A DNA stretch of 45,305 nt from Escherichia virus TH11. The translations under genes were made by a program, and so were the position numbers. Location: sequence record MT446389.1; one strand, given 5' to 3'. Below the pieces are notes generated by a model. The model made no database searches and was not told the DNA's origin. It was given only the letters and a program-made list of their open reading frames with translations. Positions 2,566 through 45,185 of this stretch are shown in pieces; positions within the stretch are counted from its first letter, which is position 1; every line of letters begins with the position of its first letter.

Positions 2566-3708
2566 ATGCACCCGCAAACTAAAATTACCGATGAGCAATT
2601 GATCGCAGAAATTCAGGCAGGGACTACGGTTAAAGATATTGCGAAGAAATACGGGATTGCCCTACGCAATGTTTATATGCGGAAAGCCCGCCTATCGAAA
2701 AAAGGCATTGGACACGGCAACGATGCCGTAATCCGCAAGCGCGTTGCCGATGGCTTTGGGGTTAAGCGCGTATCGGCCCTGGTGCGCGGTAATGGCGAAG
2801 AGGTCATGTCGTGGATCATCACTGAGCAGGACAAGGAGCGCCAACTCGAAGCTATGCGCGCTGTTGTCGATGGTATGAACAGCGAAATCACACCGGCAGC
2901 GCCCGTAAACGCCCCGCCAGTACCGGTCCATGCACTGGACCTACTCAACCTGTACACCGTGTCCGACTTCCACCTGGGCATGTTGGCCTGGGGCGAGGAG
3001 ACTGGCGAAGACTGGGATATGGCGATTGCAGAAGACCTGTTTTACCGCTGGTTTGTCGAAGCCTTCGCACGCGCACCGGACGCAGGCACTGCCGTAATTA
3101 ATATCCTCGGTGATATGGCGCATTTTGATAGCCTTGATGCGGTCACCCCAGCCAGCGGGCACGTACTGGACGCGGATACCCGCTACCAGAAACTGGTCCG
3201 CTACATGATTCGCATGGTGCGCAACGTGGTAGACTTGGCACTGCAAAAACACCACAAAGTCAAACTTCTAATCGTCCAGGGGAATCATGACGAATCGGGC
3301 ATGATTTGGCTGGCTGAAATGTTCAACACCCTGTACGAGAACGAGCCGCGCGTCGATGTGGATACGTCCCCGGACGTATACAAAATGGTGCAACACGGCA
3401 AGACCACGCTGTTCTTCCACCACGGGCACAAAGCGCGCTTCGATGCTATTGAAACCGTCATGATTTCCAAATTCAGACAGGCGTTCGGGTCCAGCGAGTA
3501 CAGCTACGCGCATGTAGGCCACTTGCACCACCAGAAGATTGTAGAATCCCGCAACATGATTGTTGAACAACACCGGACCCTCGCCGCGAAAGACGCATAT
3601 GCCAGCCGCGGCGGTTGGATGTCCGGTCGTAGCGCCAACGTAATAACCTACAGCGCCAACTACGGCGAAGTAGCGCGCTTAACCATTAGCCCGGAAATGT
3701 TGAAATGA
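2566..3708 (+). CDS. calcineurin-like metallophosphoesterase with N-terminal HTH-like region
   Basis: Motifs SDFHLG, ILGDMAHFD, QGNHDE fit D-x-H / GD / GNH(D/E); N-terminus DIAKKYGIALRNVY is HTH-like. Confidence 0.55.
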   Translation: MHPQTKITDEQLIAEIQAGTTVKDIAKKYGIALRNVYMRKARLSKKGIGHGNDAVIRKRVADGFGVKRVSALVRGNGEEVMSWIITEQDKERQLEAMRAVVDGMNSEITPAAPVNAPPVPVHALDLLNLYTVSDFHLGMLAWGEETGEDWDMAIAEDLFYRWFVEAFARAPDAGTAVINILGDMAHFDSLDAVTPASGHVLDADTRYQKLVRYMIRMVRNVVDLALQKHHKVKLLIVQGNHDESGMIWLAEMFNTLYENEPRVDVDTSPDVYKMVQHGKTTLFFHHGHKARFDAIETVMISKFRQAFGSSEYSYAHVGHLHHQKIVESRNMIVEQHRTLAAKDAYASRGGWMSGRSANVITYSANYGEVARLTISPEMLK

Positions 3709-3917
3709 TTAGACAAGTATTCATGAGCACGCAGGCTGACCGCCTGAAGGAATTACGCAAACAACTCGAAGGCTTGCGCCGATTCGAACGAACGGCAGCG
3801 GCTATAGGCATGTCTATCAGCGAGCGGATCGAGATACTATCGCAAATACGCTACACAGAAGGCGCTATAAGCGAAGTAGAAAGCATGTTAACCCGATACT
3901 ACGGTCGCCCCGTTTAA
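3705..3917 (+). CDS. hypothetical protein
   Basis: 70-aa ORF, start overlaps upstream stop. Confidence 0.4.
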   Translation: MIRQVFMSTQADRLKELRKQLEGLRRFERTAAAIGMSISERIEILSQIRYTEGAISEVESMLTRYYGRPV

Positions 3918-3923
3918 CCATCC

Positions 3924-3951
3924 TAGCCCGCCGATTTGGTGGGCTTTTTTG
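3924..3951 (+). terminator. rho-independent terminator
   Basis: agcccgcc...gtgggct hairpin followed by TTTTTT. Confidence 0.45.
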
Positions 3952-4033
3952 TGCCTGTTATAATCCCCTTAGATGGCAGGGCCGTCTCTTATGTTGCCGA
4001 TGGTCGGCGCATATGCACAAAAGGGCTTATATC

Positions 4034-9823: not shown

Positions 9824-9846
9824 TGCAACCAATATATGCAACCAAT
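9824..9846. promoter_or_regulatory. tandem TGCAACCAAT motifs in divergent intergenic region
   Basis: Two copies 13 bp apart between minus gene 9037..9801 and plus gene 9950..10651. Confidence 0.45.
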
Positions 9847-26384: not shown

Positions 26385-26438
26385 GGTATCATCTCCTATA
26401 TTTGGTTGAGTTTTAGTATTACACCGCTCGATCAAGAA

Positions 26439-26448
26439 TGCAACCAAT
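26439..26448. promoter_or_regulatory. TGCAACCAAT motif between divergent lipoprotein and tail fiber genes
   Basis: Motif with -35-like TTGCAT on minus strand and TACTAA about 18 nt downstream, pointing at lipoprotein gene. Confidence 0.4.
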
Positions 26449-26464
26449 TTACGAGGATTTAGCT

Positions 26465-28288
26465 ATGGCAGCGGGTACTCTATCCGTAACGAATAACAGC
26501 AAGGCGGTTGTCGGGGTAGGCACGACGTTTACCACGTTTACAGCTGGCGACTTCTTAACGCTGGTGGTAGGGCAAGTCCCATACACTGTTGCTATCGCGT
26601 CAGTCGAAAGCGACACCGCGCTTACGCTGGTGCTGCCGTTCGACGGCCCCACGGCAACCGATCTCGCGTGGGATGGCGTTAAGCGCGATACCATGTCACT
26701 GGCGACGATGGGCGTAACCGTACAGGCACAGAAAGCATTGCGCTTGATGCTTGCAGATGAAAACAACTGGCGTGCAATCTTCGGCGACGCTGAAGAAATA
26801 ACCGTGACGTTGCCTAACGGGCAGGTAATGCAGGGTATGTCATGGGGATATCTGTCGCAGTTGATGAAACAGGTCGACCCAGTTGAGATGCGCAACCTGC
26901 AACAGCAAGCCGCCGCATCGGAAGCCGCCGCGCTGGTGTCACGCAACGAGGCCGAAGGCTTCAAGACTGAGACGGCAGGCATTCGCGACGCCACCAATCA
27001 GATTAAGGCAGACACACAGGCGATCCACGACGCCACGAATACCATCAAGACGCAGACCGACCAGATTAAGACCGACACGCAGGCCATCAAGGACCAGACG
27101 AACCAGATCAAGACCGACACCGGCGTTATGAGGGACGAGGCAAACACCGCGAAGACTGACGCGCAAGCCGCCAGCACTGCCGCGCAGGGATATCGCGACC
27201 AGGCCGAGGAATGGGCGCAAAGCGTTAACGCGGATAACCTGCTAACCAAATCCGGCAACCTCGCGGGGCTTGCGGACAAAAGTGCGTCGTGGGCTAACCT
27301 TATGCCGTCCGGCCCGCTTCGAGTAGGCGCTGATCCCGTCGACAATCTGGACGCTGCGACTAGAGGATGGGTGTGGCGCGGTCTTGATGACGTGGGGGTG
27401 TGGGCCTTACGCAATAACTATGCTTCGGAACCCGCTGGCGGCGCAGAAGTATACGGCGGTCGCTTCGACTCATCTGCGAACGTCGCAGGGGCCGAAAAAT
27501 ACAGAATGTCGCTGCAACTTCAGGGATTTAATAACGTAGACGCCTGGACACGTTTGGTTACCGCTGACGTCCGCAGCATGGTGAACGCGGCGACGTGGGA
27601 CTTTAAGATCGATGGTAAGTTGCTTTTCAACAAAGGATTGGTTACATCATCCATCTCGGCGTCGCCCGGTAACACCTATGTCACCCTTGCGAATACATGG
27701 AGTGACAGCCAATACTCAGGCCACGTAGGTTTTGTCGGAGGGGGAACTGGGGTGTCTAATGGTGGGTGGCGTAACTTTATTTCGTTCGGGGCGCTGATCC
27801 ACCCACTAGCCGGTAACTCACACCCCCACGCTATGATTTCGCAGGTCTTTGACTATGATTTGTCGACTGGGGTACAGCCCAACGGCGATATCGTTCGAAA
27901 CACAACATTCAACCCCGAAGCATACGATATTACTTTCGGCAACAACTCAGGGACTGTTAACTATCTTTTTTCAAAGTCCCCAGTATCCGACAGGGCGCTG
28001 AAGCATGATATCGCCAGGATCGATACTCAAGTCGCGTACGATAACGTTATGGCTATGGAGTACTCGTCCTTTGTTTATAACTACGACAAAAAAGAGACGG
28101 TTAGACGTGGTTTTATCGCGCAGCAGTTGGAAGAGATCGACCCGCAGTATGTCCGTAAGTACGCCAACGCAACCGGTAAAGAGTCTCTGGCATTGGATGA
28201 AAACGTTCTACTACTGGACCTTATCGCGACTGTTCAGCATTTAGCGGCAAAGGTTGAAGCCTTAGAAAGTAAGTTAGCGGATAAATAA
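26465..28288 (+). CDS. tail fiber protein with C-terminal S74-type intramolecular chaperone domain
   Basis: C-terminus SDRALKHDIARID...; coiled-coil repeats TxQIKxDTQAI; start trimmed to MAAGTLSV because the track ATG lies inside the regulatory motif. Confidence 0.7.
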   Translation: MAAGTLSVTNNSKAVVGVGTTFTTFTAGDFLTLVVGQVPYTVAIASVESDTALTLVLPFDGPTATDLAWDGVKRDTMSLATMGVTVQAQKALRLMLADENNWRAIFGDAEEITVTLPNGQVMQGMSWGYLSQLMKQVDPVEMRNLQQQAAASEAAALVSRNEAEGFKTETAGIRDATNQIKADTQAIHDATNTIKTQTDQIKTDTQAIKDQTNQIKTDTGVMRDEANTAKTDAQAASTAAQGYRDQAEEWAQSVNADNLLTKSGNLAGLADKSASWANLMPSGPLRVGADPVDNLDAATRGWVWRGLDDVGVWALRNNYASEPAGGAEVYGGRFDSSANVAGAEKYRMSLQLQGFNNVDAWTRLVTADVRSMVNAATWDFKIDGKLLFNKGLVTSSISASPGNTYVTLANTWSDSQYSGHVGFVGGGTGVSNGGWRNFISFGALIHPLAGNSHPHAMISQVFDYDLSTGVQPNGDIVRNTTFNPEAYDITFGNNSGTVNYLFSKSPVSDRALKHDIARIDTQVAYDNVMAMEYSSFVYNYDKKETVRRGFIAQQLEEIDPQYVRKYANATGKESLALDENVLLLDLIATVQHLAAKVEALESKLADK

Positions 28289-28291
28289 GGA

Positions 28292-28316
28292 GAAGGGGCC
28301 ATACGGCCCCTTTTTA
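28292..28316. terminator. bidirectional hairpin terminator
   Basis: aaggggcc-atac-ggcccctt followed by TTTTT; between convergent genes. Confidence 0.55.
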
Positions 28317-28889
28317 GTTTGAGTTTTCCCAGTCCATTTTGCGCCGCACCAGCGGACTCTCGTAATACTCCTTACCCTCCACTTCCACCAAAGGCCAGTC
28401 GTTCACGATTACGTACGGTTCCGCGATATCCTCAATCACGCCGTGCGCGCTATGTTGCCCGAACGCTACGCCAACCAGGATGACACCGGCAACTCGACGG
28501 GATAGATATTCTCGAGCGCAACGTGCCTCGACCAGTCCGCGACGGATGCCGCTGGTGGCTTTGACCTCGTAGGTCCAGACGGCATCAATCATGTGCTCAC
28601 GGAAGTCGGGGCCGGACTTAACCTTGCGCTTACCGACCATGATAATATCGCCGCGGTCGATAGTATTTGCGCTAAACAGGCCAGTACGCATAAGCAAACC
28701 TTGCGGGATACAACTACGCCCGCCTGCCAGCCCTTCAAGGTACATGCCTGCAAACATCTCGCCCAGCACACCGACAAGACGGCTTTGCTTGCACGCGTCA
28801 GACTTTAAGCGCCACTGGTCAAACTCGACGCTTGCTAACATTGCCGCGATGTGGAATTGTTTACCGGTTATTTCATATTCGCCGTACAT
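28314..28889 (-). CDS. hypothetical protein, possible PD-(D/E)XK-like fold
   Basis: 191 aa, last gene of leftward operon; weak GD...D...EVK pattern only. Confidence 0.45.
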   Translation of the reverse strand: MYGEYEITGKQFHIAAMLASVEFDQWRLKSDACKQSRLVGVLGEMFAGMYLEGLAGGRSCIPQGLLMRTGLFSANTIDRGDIIMVGKRKVKSGPDFREHMIDAVWTYEVKATSGIRRGLVEARCAREYLSRRVAGVILVGVAFGQHSAHGVIEDIAEPYVIVNDWPLVEVEGKEYYESPLVRRKMDWENSN

Positions 28890-28931
28890 TGTGAAGCCCT
28901 CATTGCTGCGGGCCGAAGCCCGCTATTAGAA

Positions 28932-29264
28932 TTATTTAAGTGCGCTAGTCACCAGTGTTTTTTCCATATTGCGGAAGTCTTCCGGCGTCATGAGGATTTT
29001 GGACCCATCCTCGCCAGTGAGCACGACCATAGGCTGGACTTCTTGATCCGCAATGCCGAAATTGGCGGCTTTAACGGTCTTCCCTAACGAGGCCACCGTA
29101 TCCTCGGCAACGCGCATTCCACTGTTATACGCATTAATCTCGCCATCCAGGCGCACGGACAGGTCCGAAGGCTTGAACGCGCCGCCGGTCTTGATAGGCC
29201 AGCCCTTGAGGCTGTCGAATTGCGCTGCCGTTGTATCGATCTGAATCTCGTCATGCACGGTCAT
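28932..29264 (-). CDS. hypothetical protein
   Basis: 110 aa from internal ATG (MTVHDEIQ); track N-terminal extension overlaps a better-supported small gene. Confidence 0.4.
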   Translation of the reverse strand: MTVHDEIQIDTTAAQFDSLKGWPIKTGGAFKPSDLSVRLDGEINAYNSGMRVAEDTVASLGKTVKAANFGIADQEVQPMVVLTGEDGSKILMTPEDFRNMEKTLVTSALK

Positions 29265-29406
29265 GTAAGACTCGCCCGGTAAGCGCGTTAAACACGGCAG
29301 CGATCTGTTTCGCGCTGCGTTCTTCTTTCGCGTTGTCATAGCCGTTTTCTTTTCCGCGCTGTTCCATAGTGGTGGCGGCGTTTTTGCAGTATTCGTATGC
29401 TTTCAT
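29254..29406 (-). CDS. small hypothetical protein (50 aa)
   Basis: Strong RBS AGGAG 7 nt upstream of ATG at 29406; own translation. Confidence 0.3.
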
Positions 29407-29423
29407 GGTTTGTCTCCTTTTAG

Positions 29424-29453
29424 GGGAGGCAGTATTGCCTCCCGATGTGGTTG
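29424..29453. repeat. conserved stem-loop element copy 1
   Basis: GGGAGGC-AGTATT-GCCTCCC followed by GATGTGGTT. Confidence 0.5.
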
Positions 29454-29457
29454 TGTG

Positions 29458-29727
29458 TTATTTCTTGGCCCACTCCAGAGTTTTACACTCGTAGTCTTCT
29501 TCGGCCTGGCTGAGCACACACGTCATCATGTGCTCCGCATTGTCAAATCCGCTGGATTTAGCGTATTTATCTGCTCCTCCAACCTCTGCAATCTCGGCGT
29601 TTAGCGCCTCTACAGAATGCAGTTCGATATTATTAAGATAAGGGCTTGAAACGCCTTCTTTGTCTTCAATCATTGACCAGAATGCGTTGATTTTGTTGTC
29701 CAGGTCCGCACTAATGAATTGTTTCAT
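29458..29727 (-). CDS. hypothetical protein
   Basis: 89 aa from internal ATG (MKQFISADL) with RBS AAGGTG; track start lies in TGCAACCAAT motifs. Confidence 0.45.
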   Translation of the reverse strand: MKQFISADLDNKINAFWSMIEDKEGVSSPYLNNIELHSVEALNAEIAEVGGADKYAKSSGFDNAEHMMTCVLSQAEEDYECKTLEWAKK

Positions 29728-29748
29728 AATATTCACCTTTTTGTTGCG

Positions 29749-29778
29749 GGAGGCGGTATTGCCTCCCGATGTGGTTAA
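29749..29778. repeat. conserved stem-loop element copy 2
   Basis: GGGAGGC-GGTATT-GCCTCCC followed by GATGTGGTT. Confidence 0.5.
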
Positions 29779-29784
29779 TATAGT

Positions 29785-29805
29785 TGGTTGCATTATTGGT
29801 TGCAA
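29785..29805. promoter_or_regulatory. tandem ATTGGTTGCA motifs, candidate leftward promoter
   Basis: Minus strand reads TTGCAA, 17 nt, TATATT upstream of gene 29458..29727. Confidence 0.45.
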
Positions 29806-30263
29806 GTGAATTTTGCAAGATTCACAGAATAAATATGCGGGACCAGTTCTTCACACGCCCGTTTGATGGCGGCGATGTTCTTCGCGCAGTCGTCAATGAT
29901 GACCAGTTCGTTAACTTCTGCATAGCACACCAGGCCAAATACGGAACGGGCCTTGTACTCTGGCGGCGGCGTGTCATCAAGCATATGGCGTAAGAACAGA
30001 CGACCTTTCGGGAATCTATCCAATTGCTCTTTCGTTGACTCCCAGCAATCTGACTGGCGGTTTGACAGGTACGCAATGTCGAAGCCCTGTTTAGCGTACA
30101 TGCGCAATAACGGCAGCATGTCATAATTAATGTCTTCGCGGACGTGGGCCTTATGCCACTTCGCCCAAAACGTTGATTTAGTCTTGATCCCCGGAACTAG
30201 GTCGTCGCGCACACTGCTTGACCCGTTGATAACGCCATCTAAATCGCAAATCAGTAGTTTCAT
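29793..30263 (-). CDS. HAD-superfamily phosphatase-like protein
   Basis: Motif I CDLDGVI, motif II IAYLSNR, motif IV VIIDD. Confidence 0.55.
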   Translation of the reverse strand: MKLLICDLDGVINGSSSVRDDLVPGIKTKSTFWAKWHKAHVREDINYDMLPLLRMYAKQGFDIAYLSNRQSDCWESTKEQLDRFPKGRLFLRHMLDDTPPPEYKARSVFGLVCYAEVNELVIIDDCAKNIAAIKRACEELVPHIYSVNLAKFTCNQ

Positions 30264-30481
30264 TTTAATTCCGCCATTAAATTTTCACGTACAATACGGG
30301 CCGAGAATGCGTCGCACACAAGATGGCAACGCGCCGTCATGACAAGCCAGCCAGTTAGGTCAAGGCCCAGCAATTGATGAGGTTGGCTTGCGCGCCTTAC
30401 TTTATTTCCAGGGAAAACCTGGTAGCGTTTAATTATTTCATCCACGACGCGAGGACTTCGGTCGACGACTAAGATATTCAT
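30260..30481 (-). CDS. hypothetical protein
   Basis: 73-aa ORF overlapping neighbours at both ends. Confidence 0.35.
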   Translation of the reverse strand: MNILVVDRSPRVVDEIIKRYQVFPGNKVRRASQPHQLLGLDLTGWLVMTARCHLVCDAFSARIVRENLMAELK

Positions 30482-30947
30482 TTAATTCACCTTCGCTCAT
30501 TATTTCGATTTGTGCGCTGCCGTTTGGCGGCACTTCTTCAAAGATTATCAATTGCTGGCACTTGTTGTTACTCGGCCCGACTTCGCCGGTGACGGCGTGT
30601 ATAAATCTAATCCGCCAGTCCAGAAGAATTATCAGGTTTGCAGTCTTCCTGGCCAGCTTCGCCCACTTCGTCGACGTGTCCTGATTCAGTAGCATGACCG
30701 TCCGGCGTCCGTGCGCTGCGCACTCTACCCACGGCAGCGGATCGGAATACGGCGGATTGCACCACTTCCACCCTTTCAACTCGGACCAGTCCACATCAAG
30801 CGCACTGTGTTCCGCCGTGAAGTAACGCGGTAGCAGATGATTGGCGTCGCTTGCCGCCATATCGTAACGGAATCGGTATTTCCGACGAAGCGGTTTAAAT
30901 AAAGCTGGCGGCGTGCGCCAGCTATCTTTTTGCTCATTCTCCGTCAT
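30438..30947 (-). CDS. DNA N6-adenine methyltransferase (phage Dam-type)
   Basis: 169 aa with WRTPP N-terminal motif and catalytic NPPY (WCNPPYS). Confidence 0.7.
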   Translation of the reverse strand: MTENEQKDSWRTPPALFKPLRRKYRFRYDMAASDANHLLPRYFTAEHSALDVDWSELKGWKWCNPPYSDPLPWVECAAHGRRTVMLLNQDTSTKWAKLARKTANLIILLDWRIRFIHAVTGEVGPSNNKCQQLIIFEEVPPNGSAQIEIMSEGELNEYLSRRPKSSRRG

Positions 30948-31392
30948 AGTCGGGATCTATCGCATACAGGGCGGTTTTCTTGCCACTGGATAGCACGCGT
31001 TGGACTCGGGATAGCTCCGCCCTACTGAGCGGTCGGCTATCGGAATAGTAGCTGCCGTTTGCACGCCACGCTATACGCACCAGTCCTTTCCGCGGGATCG
31101 AAGACTGGCTGCCCTTCGGACGGACGTACTCCTCGGCCAGTTTGCAATGCTCGCGCAGACCTTCGGCAGTGATGCGGTTTAGCGCGACGGTGGTTGTGTA
31201 CCCGGTGCGCTGCATAATACCCATCAACTCATACAGCAGTTCGAAGCGCTCCTCTAACTCCTTGCGCATCTTTTCCTCGCCTTCATAGCTCGCCAGGTAG
31301 GTATCCGCGAGCGCGTTCGCCCGTTCGACCTGTTCGCGGGCTTCGAGGCATTGCGCGGCCCAGTAATTTTTCTCTTCTTGTAAAATTTTCAT
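30934..31392 (-). CDS. hypothetical protein
   Basis: 152 aa, coiled-coil N-terminus. Confidence 0.45.
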   Translation of the reverse strand: MKILQEEKNYWAAQCLEAREQVERANALADTYLASYEGEEKMRKELEERFELLYELMGIMQRTGYTTTVALNRITAEGLREHCKLAEEYVRPKGSQSSIPRKGLVRIAWRANGSYYSDSRPLSRAELSRVQRVLSSGKKTALYAIDPDYDGE

Positions 31393-31446
31393 CGTGTTGT
31401 CTCCAGGTATTAAAAAAGGCGTCCAAACCGGACACCCTTAAGATAA

Positions 31447-31473
31447 TGCAACCAATATGATTATGCAACCAAT
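31447..31473. promoter_or_regulatory. tandem TGCAACCAAT motifs, candidate leftward promoter
   Basis: Minus strand reads TTGCAT, 17 nt, TATCTT upstream of gene starting 31392. Confidence 0.45.
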
Positions 31474-34406: not shown

Positions 34407-34685
34407 CTACGCGACCAATTCAGCAACCAATAAATCACAGTCGGCTATGTTGTCGATAACGCGAACGTCCGCACCGCGGCGGGCCATTCGTTCATGTTCA
34501 CGTACCTGGTGCGGCTTCGGTTTCCCACCTGGGCGCTTCACTTCGACGAACACTATTTTGCCGTTGATGATAATAATCAGGTCGGGCGCACCTGCGCGCC
34601 CCTCCCATGCCAGTTTTCGGCAGAATCCCCCAACGGCTTTAACCAGCTTCATCAGGTGACTTTGTATCTTGCCTTCTGGTGTCAT
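34407..34685 (-). CDS. VRR-NUC domain nuclease
   Basis: 92 aa with PD-(D/E)XK core GAPDLIII...VFVEVKRPGGKP...Q. Confidence 0.7.
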   Translation of the reverse strand: MTPEGKIQSHLMKLVKAVGGFCRKLAWEGRAGAPDLIIIINGKIVFVEVKRPGGKPKPHQVREHERMARRGADVRVIDNIADCDLLVAELVA

Positions 34686-37394: not shown

Positions 37395-38180
37395 TTAACG
37401 GCGGCGACGTTTACGTGGCGCTTCGTCTTCGTCGTCGTCCTCATCTTCGTCATCGCGTGGCTTACGACGTTTGCGAGGTTTTTCATCTTCCTCATCGTCG
37501 TCATCACGACGTTTTGACTTTTTGGACTTGCGCGGCTTGTCATCTTCATCATCGTCATCACGACGTTTTGACTTTTTGGACTTGCGCGGTGCTTCGTCTT
37601 CGTCGTCGTTGTCGTTGTCCAGGTCTTCATCGGAGCAAGAAGACCCGCCACCTCCGAAGGCTTCGCCGTCTTCACGGAATCGCAGACCCAGCAAGCCAGC
37701 CCCGAGACCTTTGCCGTTGGTATTGTTCCATGCCCAAATATCAAGGGACACGTTGCAATAACAACCGGAGTAGATCTCCTGGCCTTCGATCTCGTCGCCT
37801 TCTACGTTCAGACCTTGTTCCGTCTGCTTCTCGCCGAGTGACGTTTGAATGATCGGCTGTTTGAACGATTTGGCGTTGATATACAACATGCCTTCGAATT
37901 CTTCGGTTACTTCGTCGCGCTCGTCACCGTCGCGAACTGCGCATTCCTTAGAATCCTGGGCGTAGTGGCGGTCCATCCACTTATCGGCATTCTTCTCGGA
38001 TTTCAGCTTATCGGTGAGCACTGCGCGCGCTGCCGCTTCCACTTTGTCCACCTGCGGATCTTCTTTATCCAGAAGAATAACGGCACGGTATGCCGGTTTT
38101 TGACCATCCTGTTTAGGGGTATCACGTTCCCAAATTTTAAGGAAGCATACGCGCACATTTTTCAGGTTGACTTTAGCCAT
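37395..38180 (-). CDS. putative ssDNA-binding protein with charged repetitive C-terminal tail
   Basis: Sits between Cas4-like exonuclease and polymerase; Gly hinge then alternating acidic and K/R blocks ending RKRRRR; start trimmed to MAKVNLK. Confidence 0.5.
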   Translation of the reverse strand: MAKVNLKNVRVCFLKIWERDTPKQDGQKPAYRAVILLDKEDPQVDKVEAAARAVLTDKLKSEKNADKWMDRHYAQDSKECAVRDGDERDEVTEEFEGMLYINAKSFKQPIIQTSLGEKQTEQGLNVEGDEIEGQEIYSGCYCNVSLDIWAWNNTNGKGLGAGLLGLRFREDGEAFGGGGSSCSDEDLDNDNDDEDEAPRKSKKSKRRDDDDEDDKPRKSKKSKRRDDDDEEDEKPRKRRKPRDDEDEDDDEDEAPRKRRRR

Positions 38181-40554: not shown

Positions 40555-41073
40555 TTAGTCTTCCAGTTCGAAATAAGTCTCGACGATTTCTTTTAAATCT
40601 TTGTGGAAGTCTTCGACGTCGTCGTCTTCCAGCTTGGCGATTGATTTGATCTCGAACGCTTCCAGCAGGTCGTCAAATTCGTCGTTAGCATCGTCGTCAT
40701 CGCCACCGGCGATAATCGCGGCGTACTGCTTGATCTCGTCGCGCATCTCTGCCAGCGGATCGGCATCTTTCTTCCCTTTGCCTTTCGCCGGAGCTTTTTT
40801 ACCCTTCGCCGGTTTTTCGTCTTCGGCTTCTTCATCGTCGTCATCTTCTACGACTTCTTTTTTGGCCTTACCTTTAGCCGGGGATTTTTTAGATTTAGCC
40901 GGTTTTTCGTCTTCGGCGTCATCGTCGTCATCTTCGACAACTTCTTTTTTGGCCTTAGACGGCTTCTTATCTTCCTGTTTACCAACGGCAGCGCCAACGG
41001 TTTCATAATGCTTTGCAATGGTTTCCAGTGCTACTACGCCGCGAGTGATCAGGTTTACGATTTGCTCAAACAT
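40555..41073 (-). CDS. charged tandem-repeat protein, candidate DNA mimic or nucleoid-associated factor
   Basis: 172 aa from internal ATG with RBS GGAGAT; two in-frame repeats KKEVVEDDDD..EDEKPAK.KK.PAKGK; first gene of leftward early operon. Confidence 0.55.
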   Translation of the reverse strand: MFEQIVNLITRGVVALETIAKHYETVGAAVGKQEDKKPSKAKKEVVEDDDDDAEDEKPAKSKKSPAKGKAKKEVVEDDDDEEAEDEKPAKGKKAPAKGKGKKDADPLAEMRDEIKQYAAIIAGGDDDDANDEFDDLLEAFEIKSIAKLEDDDVEDFHKDLKEIVETYFELED

Positions 41074-41269: not shown

Positions 41270-41299
41270 ATGATAGATTGGTTGCAGGATAGGTGTCAA
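41270..41299 (-). promoter_or_regulatory. candidate early leftward promoter with operator-like motif in spacer
   Basis: Minus strand TTGACA, 18-nt spacer containing TGCAACCAAT, TATCAT. Confidence 0.4.
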
Positions 41300-44080: not shown

Positions 44081-44155
44081 ATTTTGCGCGCATTGGTTGC
44101 CGATATGGGAATTCCCATATCGCTAGAAGATTAAATTTTGCGCGCATTGGTTGCC
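44073..44155. repeat. direct repeat - palindrome - direct repeat element
   Basis: 29-bp direct repeat at 44073-44101 and 44127-44155 flanking perfect 20-bp palindrome gatatgggaattcccatatc at 44102-44121. Confidence 0.7.
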
Positions 44156-44213
44156 ATTTTGAGTGTTTTTATCTGGTCGTATTGGTTGCCGTGTAGTGTA
44201 AATATAGTGAATA

Positions 44214-44402
44214 GTTATGCAGTTTTATTGCATAAAGTAAGCGGGACAAAAAGCGGGACAAACAAGGGGCGGGACAAAGCGGGACAGCACCCCTGTCCCA
44301 CCCCGGATGACGCGGCCTGGAGAGGAGCGGGACAGGCGGGACAACCCCCAGTCTTTCAGACTAGACGGGGGGTCAATGGCCCCCCTCGTCTGAGACTGAA
44401 TA
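44214..44402. repeat. GCGGGACAAA repeat array copy 3 with terminal stem-loop
   Basis: Paralogue of 15565-15735 with a few substitutions; preceded by AT-rich stretch; hairpin at 44350-44398. Confidence 0.7.
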
Positions 44403-44543
44403 AAATCCGGGGATTGCAAAATACACGGCAGCATGATGCGAAGTGCGGTCGAGGATGAACTAGGCAACCAATGCGAGATGCATTATGCTGAGTGAAAAAT
44501 GCAGTTTGCAGTCACAGCAGATAGCGATCAACTTTTTCATGCG

Positions 44544-44594
44544 CATGTTTGATATTGGTTGCATTCAACCCGGCACCTGGCTATATTGGTTGCG
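44544..44594. promoter_or_regulatory. ATTGGTTGC motif pair upstream of gene at 44616
   Basis: ATTGGTTGCA at 44544-44553 and ATTGGTTGC at 44584-44592; reverse-orientation copy near 44466. Confidence 0.4.
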
Positions 44595-44915: not shown

Positions 44916-45185
44916 ATGAGCCGTAGGCGCGCTAAACAGCTTTCCTGGCATATCCCCCTGCATTGCATACGAATATGGGCTGAGAATGCGGTTGAGGGCG
45001 AATCTGTATTCTGGTGCTATCGCGATGATGTGAAGCCGTTGACGCAGACTCGCTACTTGCACCAGTTCGCAGCACAACACGATTTCAGGGTGCGTACTTC
45101 CTTGCAACCAATTGGAATACGTATTACATTACGCCGGAAGCCCGCCGTTGAGCGGGTAGGCAAACACTGGAGACTGAGCAAATGA
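44916..45185 (+). CDS. hypothetical protein
   Basis: 89-aa ORF; stop overlaps next ATG. Confidence 0.4.
   Translation: MSRRRAKQLSWHIPLHCIRIWAENAVEGESVFWCYRDDVKPLTQTRYLHQFAAQHDFRVRTSLQPIGIRITLRRKPAVERVGKHWRLSK

Follow-up and report, generated by a model that had tools for sequence, protein, structure and literature searches.

Among the described relatives of the genes considered here are two small phage genes that act at the interface with bacterial immunity. In Dhillonvirus SECphi18, ksap1 encodes a protein of 74 amino acids (aa) and lies between methyltransferase and phosphatase genes; its product binds the C-terminal sensor domain of KpAvs2 and so triggers this NLR-like nuclease (Bechon et al. 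2024, PMC11564622). Ksap1 residues K30, L39 and F60 have been implicated in recognition by KpAvs2, and L47 and T50 in escape. Escape mutants carry L47R, T50P or deletions in Ksap1, the natural alleles of SECphi6 and Bas16 evade recognition, and the Bas17 allele binds and activates KpAvs2 (PMC11564622). Large ksap1 deletions are tolerated by the phage. EcAvs2 is also activated by Ksap1, a protein that resembles a terminase ATPase core and may itself be an anti-defence protein (preprint 10.64898/2026.04.30.721860). The second gene, anti-Tmn, was identified experimentally as ORF35 of phage SM_S22 (Yamashita et al. 2025, PMC11846954), and its activity depends on both the allele and the Tmn variant (PMC11846954). 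Here we analyse a block of small leftward genes (positions 28314-30481) that carries a Ksap1 ortholog and lies next to an anti-Tmn homolog. The block is part of a 45,305-nucleotide (nt) stretch of Escherichia phage DNA, record MT446389.1 (the window). We refer to the phage as TH13, the region being a 100% match to Escherichia virus TH13 (MT446391.1).

The distal end of the leftward operon

TH13 belongs to the genus Dhillonvirus, and the region has matches of 80-95% in about 158 phage records, nearly all from Dhillonviruses. The leftward operon of well-annotated relatives encodes DNA polymerase I, SSB, a large PD-(D/E)XK nuclease, an SNF2-type helicase, Dcm-like and Dam-like methyltransferases and an HNH endonuclease, and it ends with the genes of the block, which are convergent with a lateral tail-fibre gene. 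In TH13 that gene lies at 26438-28288 on the plus strand. Between it and the block, a terminator scan placed a bidirectional intrinsic terminator (28290-28315) with an 8-11 bp G+C stem and T-runs on both strands; a terminator is annotated at the equivalent place in phage WFI. Given the gene order of the relatives and this terminator ahead of the convergent tail-fibre gene, the block is the promoter-distal end of a replication/DNA-metabolism operon. An earlier, sequence-only reading of the stretch had likewise placed it at the distal end of an operon. The early timing which that reading gave to the operon is one that we can only infer.

The sequence-only reading listed six genes, and all six of its open reading frames (ORFs) are present on the minus strand, at the positions it gave. 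They amount to five genes instead, as a single DUF6378 gene, a pseudogene in TH13, is spread over the '50 aa' and '110 aa' ORFs. The order of transcription would be Ksap1, a HAD phosphatase, an 89-aa cargo gene, the DUF6378 gene and a PD-(D/E)XK-fold nuclease. Conservation and purifying selection among 15 relatives indicate that the ORFs are coding: across the 15 phages compared, the ratio of nonsynonymous to synonymous substitution rates (dN/dS) of each gene fell within 0.07-0.22, with values of 0.07-0.095 for the nuclease, HAD, Dam, Dcm and HNH genes, while Ksap1, DUF6378 and the anti-Tmn neighbour lie near 0.21. Scans for Rfam families and tRNAs gave no hit in this region. The best-supported account of the block is one documented immune-sensed protein, two enzymes whose substrates would be nucleic acids or nucleotides, a mobile cargo gene and a decayed gene. 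We think it likely that these five genes are separately replaceable and together make up a non-essential accessory tail of the replication/DNA-metabolism operon. The alternative that the block holds six independent small early genes, mostly unassignable and candidate host-takeover toxins, has in its favour that the ORFs are real, sit in an early-type operon and include several products with no assigned function. Against it, two of the ORFs are fragments of one gene, so that its gene count is already disproved; the 73-aa product is Ksap1; and in a Dhillonvirus gene-by-gene co-expression library just 1 of 58 genes, unnamed, was constitutively toxic (preprint 10.64898/2026.04.30.721860). We give this alternative practically no weight.

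Natural variants that lack the HAD gene, or the HAD, DUF6378 and nuclease genes together, indicate that the distal genes are dispensable. The HAD gene is absent from LM40P1 and truncated in Bas16 and SM_W22, and the C-terminus of Ksap1 is altered in Pandora71 and Bas16. TH13 would itself be without a working DUF6378 gene. In Bas17 (KarlBarth) the HAD, DUF6378 and nuclease genes are all missing and tail-fibre genes are found instead, which suggests module replacement at the operon end. In this part of the Bas17 sequence (1461-2622), three additional convergent genes come directly after Ksap1, and two of these carry tail fibre protein annotations.

Ksap1 and the neighbouring anti-Tmn homolog

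The 73-aa gene (30260-30481, minus strand) had been left among the unassignable ones. By its synteny between the Dam and HAD genes and by homology, it is a Ksap1 ortholog. Its product aligns with SECphi18 Ksap1 over the full length (tblastn 52.7% identity, E=9e-19; 53.4% in pairwise alignment) and is 81% identical to Bas17 Ksap1. In length (73-74 aa), Dam-HAD position and homology, it is like the Ksap1 proteins of SECphi18, Bas17 and Pal009; the TH13 allele is nevertheless divergent, and its recognition by KpAvs2 or EcAvs2 is a prediction only. L39, L47, T50 and F60 of TH13 Ksap1 are common to SECphi18 and Bas17, and position 30 is R as in Bas17. Because the protein keeps these residues of the Avs2-activating Bas17 allele, we predict that TH13 is probably sensed by Avs2 via its Ksap1 allele, the protein being bound directly by Avs2 NLR-like sensors as an infection signal. 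Ksap1 also has the highest nonsynonymous rate in the block (dN 0.25). It overlaps the neighbouring Dam methyltransferase gene (30438-30947, minus strand) by 44 nt in TH13-type phages, compared with about 20 nt in most relatives. The Dam gene itself encodes 169 aa in TH13-type phages and 161 aa in most relatives (overlap at 30438-30481). Papers on OLD and on escaper mutants name none of the block genes. A link to the Dazbog methylase was considered and rejected, as it relates to Bacillus phage SPR and not to a Dhillonvirus.

Just upstream of the block, outside the coordinates of the sequence-only reading, lies a gene for a 152-aa anti-Tmn homolog (30934-31392, minus strand; phrog_10530), assigned by homology. 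The protein has 100% identity with that of SECphi18 and 79% with that of SM_S22, which is active. Over its first 60 residues, a single position sets it apart from the SMS24 anti-Tmn homolog (PMC11846954 Supplementary Fig. 5). It is a member of the anti-Tmn family and shares the raised evolutionary rate of Ksap1 and DUF6378. The SM_S22 gene shows that validated anti-defence functions sit in this segment of the operon. The suggestion that distal early genes are a reservoir of anti-defence functions therefore holds in part: the block contains a protein sensed by Avs2 and adjoins an anti-Tmn homolog, but Ksap1 is documented as a trigger and not yet as an anti-defence factor.

The split DUF6378 gene and the two predicted enzymes

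In every relative a single gene, with annotated lengths of 150-184 aa, occupies the place of the two ORFs that we treat as one. The N-terminal fragment in TH13 (29251-29406, minus strand; 51 aa, given as 50 aa in the sequence-only reading) matches positions 1-49 of the 184-position phrog_9871 profile. The C-terminal fragment (28932-29264, minus strand; 110 aa) matches positions 108-184 and aligns with the C-terminal part of intact orthologs. In the former, roughly the first 44 codons are in frame and a frameshifted tail comes after them, with a deletion junction at about 29278|29277. The latter starts at an internal ATG of a 135-aa ORF, and its product consists of a variable linker and a conserved C-terminal module of about 35 aa. 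A DNA alignment with relatives revealed a clean 119-nt gap in TH13 (columns 201-319) with GGGCG microhomology at its flanks, and because 119 is not divisible by three the reading frame shifts. With the 119 nt restored, one ORF of 197 aa results, whose product shares 93-94% identity with intact alleles of that length. Used as a query, the sequence across the junction matched unbroken only in TH13, while the other 144 of 145 matching records have the extra 119 nt. The lesion is thus either recent and private to TH13 or an assembly artefact in a single unannotated GenBank deposit. In the account we prefer, a DUF6378 gene with a hypervariable linker would have been inactivated in TH13 by a private 119-nt deletion.

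Intact orthologs match DUF6378 (PF19905) at residues 16-85 with 37.5 bits against a cut-off of 27.1. Neither TH13 fragment has a Pfam match, because the deletion takes away about half of the domain, and TH13 therefore holds the remnant of a family member. The family combines a conserved N-terminal DUF6378 domain (residues 1-88), a linker of 0 to about 70 residues and the conserved C-terminal module. It is diverse: at 90% identity its members, 130-218 aa long, form more than 120 clusters. PDB sequence searches with the DUF6378 protein and with the DUF6378 profile gave no usable match. The AlphaFold2 (AF2) model was poor (pLDDT 63, pTM 0.26), and its Foldseek matches in the PDB, all with E>0.5, were meaningless. 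The idea that DUF6378 might be a MazG-like pyrophosphatase found no support when 25 family members were scanned against Pfam at E<=10, and it was dropped. The 'phosphofructokinase' labels that PHROG attaches to the family look like propagated annotation.

The 156-aa protein (29793-30263, minus strand) had been read as a HAD-type phosphatase, and its profile match bears this out (PHROG 415, E=1.2e-30). The match spans profile positions 21-172 of 218, and the whole protein is HAD-like. All four HAD motifs (D7-L-D9-G-V, YL(S/T)NR, K104 and II(D/E)D) are intact and are kept in 8 of 8 aligned orthologs, including distant ones and even those where the relative's nuclease is only 55% identical. With a dN/dS of 0.09, the gene is to judge from these motifs that of an intact HAD phosphatase. 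The phosphatase domain of PNKP and the class IIIB acid phosphatases share all four motifs and are its best weak profile matches, as the Pfam and NCBIfam results also indicate by pointing to HAD IIIB and PNKP-type phosphatases. The TH13 protein differs from these in standing alone, without a kinase domain, and in scoring under the Pfam and NCBIfam thresholds, in the case of NCBIfam far under. A PDB sequence search returned nothing usable.

Similarity to PNKP raises the possibility that the block is a nucleic-acid end-healing or repair module countering nicking or tRNA-cleaving defences. PHROG 415 is labelled polynucleotide kinase, Pfam gives a weak HAD_PNKP match (E=0.036), and the 152-aa neighbour is annotated as a DNA ligase in some records. 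Profile searches, however, found no match to a P-loop kinase domain in the 156-aa protein, which is a phosphatase-type HAD domain alone, and the 'polynucleotide kinase' label (T4 Pnk type) is wrong. The 'DNA ligase' label was rejected as well: the neighbour is a coiled-coil and small beta-domain protein of the family identified experimentally as anti-Tmn, and no ligase is annotated elsewhere in one curated relative. Having neither a kinase nor a ligase, this alternative fails, and we judge it very unlikely.

The last gene of the operon (28314-28889, minus strand; phrog_10558) encodes a 191-aa protein for which a PD-(D/E)XK-like nature had been proposed, and here the fold upholds the proposal. 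The protein model has the alpha/beta core fold of restriction endonucleases, with D81 directly before the strand formed by residues 82-85 and E108-V-K110 within the strand formed by residues 104-112. D81, E108 and K110 are invariant in 7 homologs with identities down to 54%. By this fold the protein is a strongly conserved PD-(D/E)XK-fold nuclease whose activity is predicted. It shares the core fold and the D...ExK signature with minimal PD-(D/E)XK nucleases (I-Ssp6803I, archaeal Hjc, fusellovirus D212 and small type II restriction enzymes). It differs from them in having no detectable sequence similarity (9-15% identity), added N-terminal helices, a C-terminal beta/alpha extension and a very small family. 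A PDB sequence search gave nothing usable, and an exhaustive profile search of 1.84 billion proteins recovered only 15 representatives, none of which belongs to a Pfam family. Fold matches in BFVD were to uncharacterised phage proteins only. One GenBank record already labels the family 'restriction endonuclease'. Conceivably, the nuclease might cooperate with the Dam and Dcm methyltransferases of the phage and attack unmodified DNA in the manner of a restriction system.

Two further nuclease genes were noted. In Klebsiella phage Carter_MM5 a homolog with about 31% identity (3480-4007 of that sequence) closes the replication operon, with two DNA methyltransferase genes upstream of it and the lysis cassette right after it, so that methyltransferases and nuclease recur together in an unrelated siphovirus group. 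In TH13 itself, a 92-aa VRR-NUC domain protein (34407-34685, minus strand; Pfam score 26.7 bits, cut-off 23.8) could be a structure-specific nuclease or a resolvase; relatives annotate it just as 'hypothetical' or 'endonuclease'.

Phage T5 couples host DNA degradation with a 5'-deoxynucleotidase. In a comparable manner, the HAD, DUF6378 and nuclease genes could form one nucleic-acid and nucleotide breakdown pathway in which DNA of the host or of competitors is degraded by the nuclease and the products are processed by the phosphatase together with a nucleotide hydrolase. The three genes are adjacent in all relatives, distant ones included, and are jointly missing in Bas17. DUF6378 genes also occur within nucleotide/DNA-metabolism modules of unrelated phages, and the Klebsiella siphophage homolog of the nuclease ends a replication operon downstream of two DNA methyltransferases. 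This proposal is weakened by independent losses, HAD alone in LM40P1 and DUF6378 alone in TH13, and by evolutionary rates that are about threefold apart. An internal promoter and a variable cargo slot also separate HAD from the other two genes, and comparisons by PDB, AF2/Foldseek or Pfam gave no catalytic assignment for DUF6378. We regard a shared pathway as unlikely, and favour separately replaceable genes in an accessory operon tail.

The promoter-hairpin module and its cargo slot

Downstream of the HAD gene lies a putative sigma-70-like promoter, TTGCAA-N17-TATATT (29777-29805, minus strand), indicated by a promoter scan, motif enrichment and conservation. It is built of two TGCAACCAA(T/C) 10-mers (29795-29804 and 29783-29792), the first of which overlaps the last codons of HAD. 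These are the tandem motifs that the sequence-only reading had pointed out, and they are real: the TGCAACCAAT 10-mer has 19 matches in the window at <=1 mismatch compared with 3.45 expected. The conserved stem-loop that it had reported is confirmed as well. The element is a 29-nt direct repeat, AACCACATC-GGGAGGCA-ATAC-TGCCTCCC, present in exactly two copies where none is expected by chance. Copy 1 (29748-29776, minus strand) starts 9 nt after the -10 hexamer (RNA fold -17.2 kcal/mol, z = -4.1), and copy 2 (29424-29452, minus strand) lies just upstream of the DUF6378 ribosome-binding site (-16.0 kcal/mol, z = -3.7).

The same arrangement is found across the genus. In every relative the HAD gene ends within the TGCAACCAAT 10-mer and a second 10-mer comes next, inverted in most phages and direct in TH13-type phages; both are reversed in LM40P1 and in two distant relatives (L033 and L034). 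The first 10-mer provides a -35 element, TTGCAA or TTGCAC, at a spacing of 17-18 nt. After the 10-mers come a -10-like TATAGT or TATATT, then 8-10 nt on a G+C hairpin of 5-8 bp, a Shine-Dalgarno sequence and the next gene. The 10-mer pair, -10 element and hairpin are kept in relatives as distant as L033 and L034. When each leader was folded individually, the hairpin was found at the same position in 15 of 15, with at least four stem sequences (GGGAGGC, GGGGGC, GGGGCGG and CCGGGTCG). Since position is kept while stem sequence changes, selection appears to act on the structure of the hairpin. An intrinsic terminator was rejected as an explanation for the stem-loop, because the hairpins are followed by the A-rich CCTAAAAGG and GCAACAAAAAGG with no U-tract and are absent from the terminator scan. 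We propose that the block is read leftward and re-primed at the internal promoter formed by the two 10-mers. The transcript from that promoter would start with a stable G+C hairpin, which probably stabilises the 5' end or signals processing, and transcription of the block would stop at the bidirectional terminator.

Across the window the 10-mer (reverse complement ATTGGTTGCA) is about fivefold enriched, often paired and found beside -10-like hexamers at operon starts on both strands. Sites were seen at 2371-2403, 9824-9846, 26439-26448, 29783-29804, 31447-31473, 41277-41286, 44092-44594 and 45103-45112. In the gap between the HNH and anti-Tmn genes (31393-31473, minus strand), two ATTGGTTGCA 10-mers and TATCTT repeat the promoter architecture of the block. 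The same gap contains a hairpin, GGTGTCC-GGTTT-GGACGCC, followed by TTTTTT, that looks like an overlapping terminator and promoter; phage WFI has a terminator at the equivalent site. The 10-mer could serve as a promoter element specific to the genus or as an operator for some regulator, and a literature search for the motif found nothing relevant. Imperfect direct repeats of several families, rich in TCGTC and TCATC, lie at 37402-37633 and 40607-40966; read on the minus strand, they would give two of the leftward operon's genes Asp/Glu-rich repeated segments.

Shuffling of morons and of regulatory cassettes is familiar in phages, for example from lambdoid morons and from the promoter-stem-loop (PeSL) cassettes that T4-type phages carry. 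The slot downstream of the HAD gene behaves like a moron site in that its gene is sporadic, is bracketed by repeats and is replaced by other cargo in relatives. In TH13 the slot holds the gene for an acidic 89-aa protein (29458-29727, minus strand; isoelectric point 4.5, phrog_7287), which is present in 3 of the 15 Dhillonviruses compared. In TH13, McMelon and Pandora71 the leader and hairpin are duplicated and the copies bracket the 89-aa gene, while JLBYU60 has one copy and no such gene. In Pandora71 a majority-type HAD 3' end is joined to a TH13-type cassette at the 10-mer. L033 and L034 carry unrelated small genes in the same slot, among them those for 98-aa and 101-aa proteins. These two proteins (L033 4846-5287 and L034 5160-5465) have an N-terminal hydrophobic, signal-peptide-like segment and are unrelated to the 89-aa protein; the L033 slot also holds a 44-aa Cys-containing ORF. 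A homolog search with the 89-aa protein returned one near-identical cluster. At about 37-59% identity, homologs are encoded in Vequintavirinae, Krischvirus and Citrobacter siphophages, where the genes around them are always small and without annotation; rV5-like and RB49-like phages thus share the protein with TH13.

We infer that the regulatory repeats are the recombination joints of the slot, and the 89-aa gene was probably gained, and can probably be lost, via recombination between the two hairpin-repeat copies. As in morons and PeSL cassettes, a short promoter and hairpin module bounds a slot with differing small genes, and repeats flank the insert. The TH13 module differs from the PeSL of T4-type phages in that TH13 is a siphovirus, the motif is another one, the hairpin comes after the promoter and has no U-tract, and recombination would be the presumed route. 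It is conceivable, although rather improbable, that such 10-mer/promoter/hairpin modules are joints for shuffling immune-interface genes, with the DUF6378 and 89-aa proteins being anti-defence factors or triggers and the TH13 119-nt knockout a natural escape lesion.

Several observations count against the accessory-tail account given above. The Pfam scores of the HAD protein fall below their cut-offs (Acid_phosphat_B, 22 bits against 27; HAD_PNKP, 14.6 against 27.6, E=0.036), and the 119-nt deletion is known from one unannotated deposit and could be an assembly artefact. The internal promoter scores 9 of 12, in a promoter scan that did not exceed shuffled sequence (13 found against 9.9 expected), and the hairpin is without a U-tract. 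The nuclease is near-ubiquitous in the genus and under strong purifying selection, a poor fit to the term 'accessory', though Bas17 is without it. Instead of an accessory factor, the 191-aa protein could be a phage Holliday-junction resolvase or a selfish homing endonuclease, which we consider quite unlikely.

The phage, the architecture of the locus, Ksap1 and anti-Tmn were already known. What appears to be unreported in the literature searched is the fold of the 191-aa family, the private pseudogenisation in TH13 and the 10-mer/promoter/hairpin module as a cassette boundary. These advances are incremental and do not overturn current understanding. They provide a corrected annotation for a therapy-relevant phage genus, with five genes including one pseudogene and with the 73-aa gene named as Ksap1, and they mark the 'DNA ligase' and 'polynucleotide kinase' labels that recur in the genus as misleading. 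They also yield a testable prediction, namely that the Ksap1 allele of TH13 would make the phage subject to restriction by Avs2 systems. Should the cassette idea be true, it would explain the exchange of small immune-interaction genes among Dhillonviruses and would make the DUF6378 and 89-aa proteins the next candidates to examine against defence systems.

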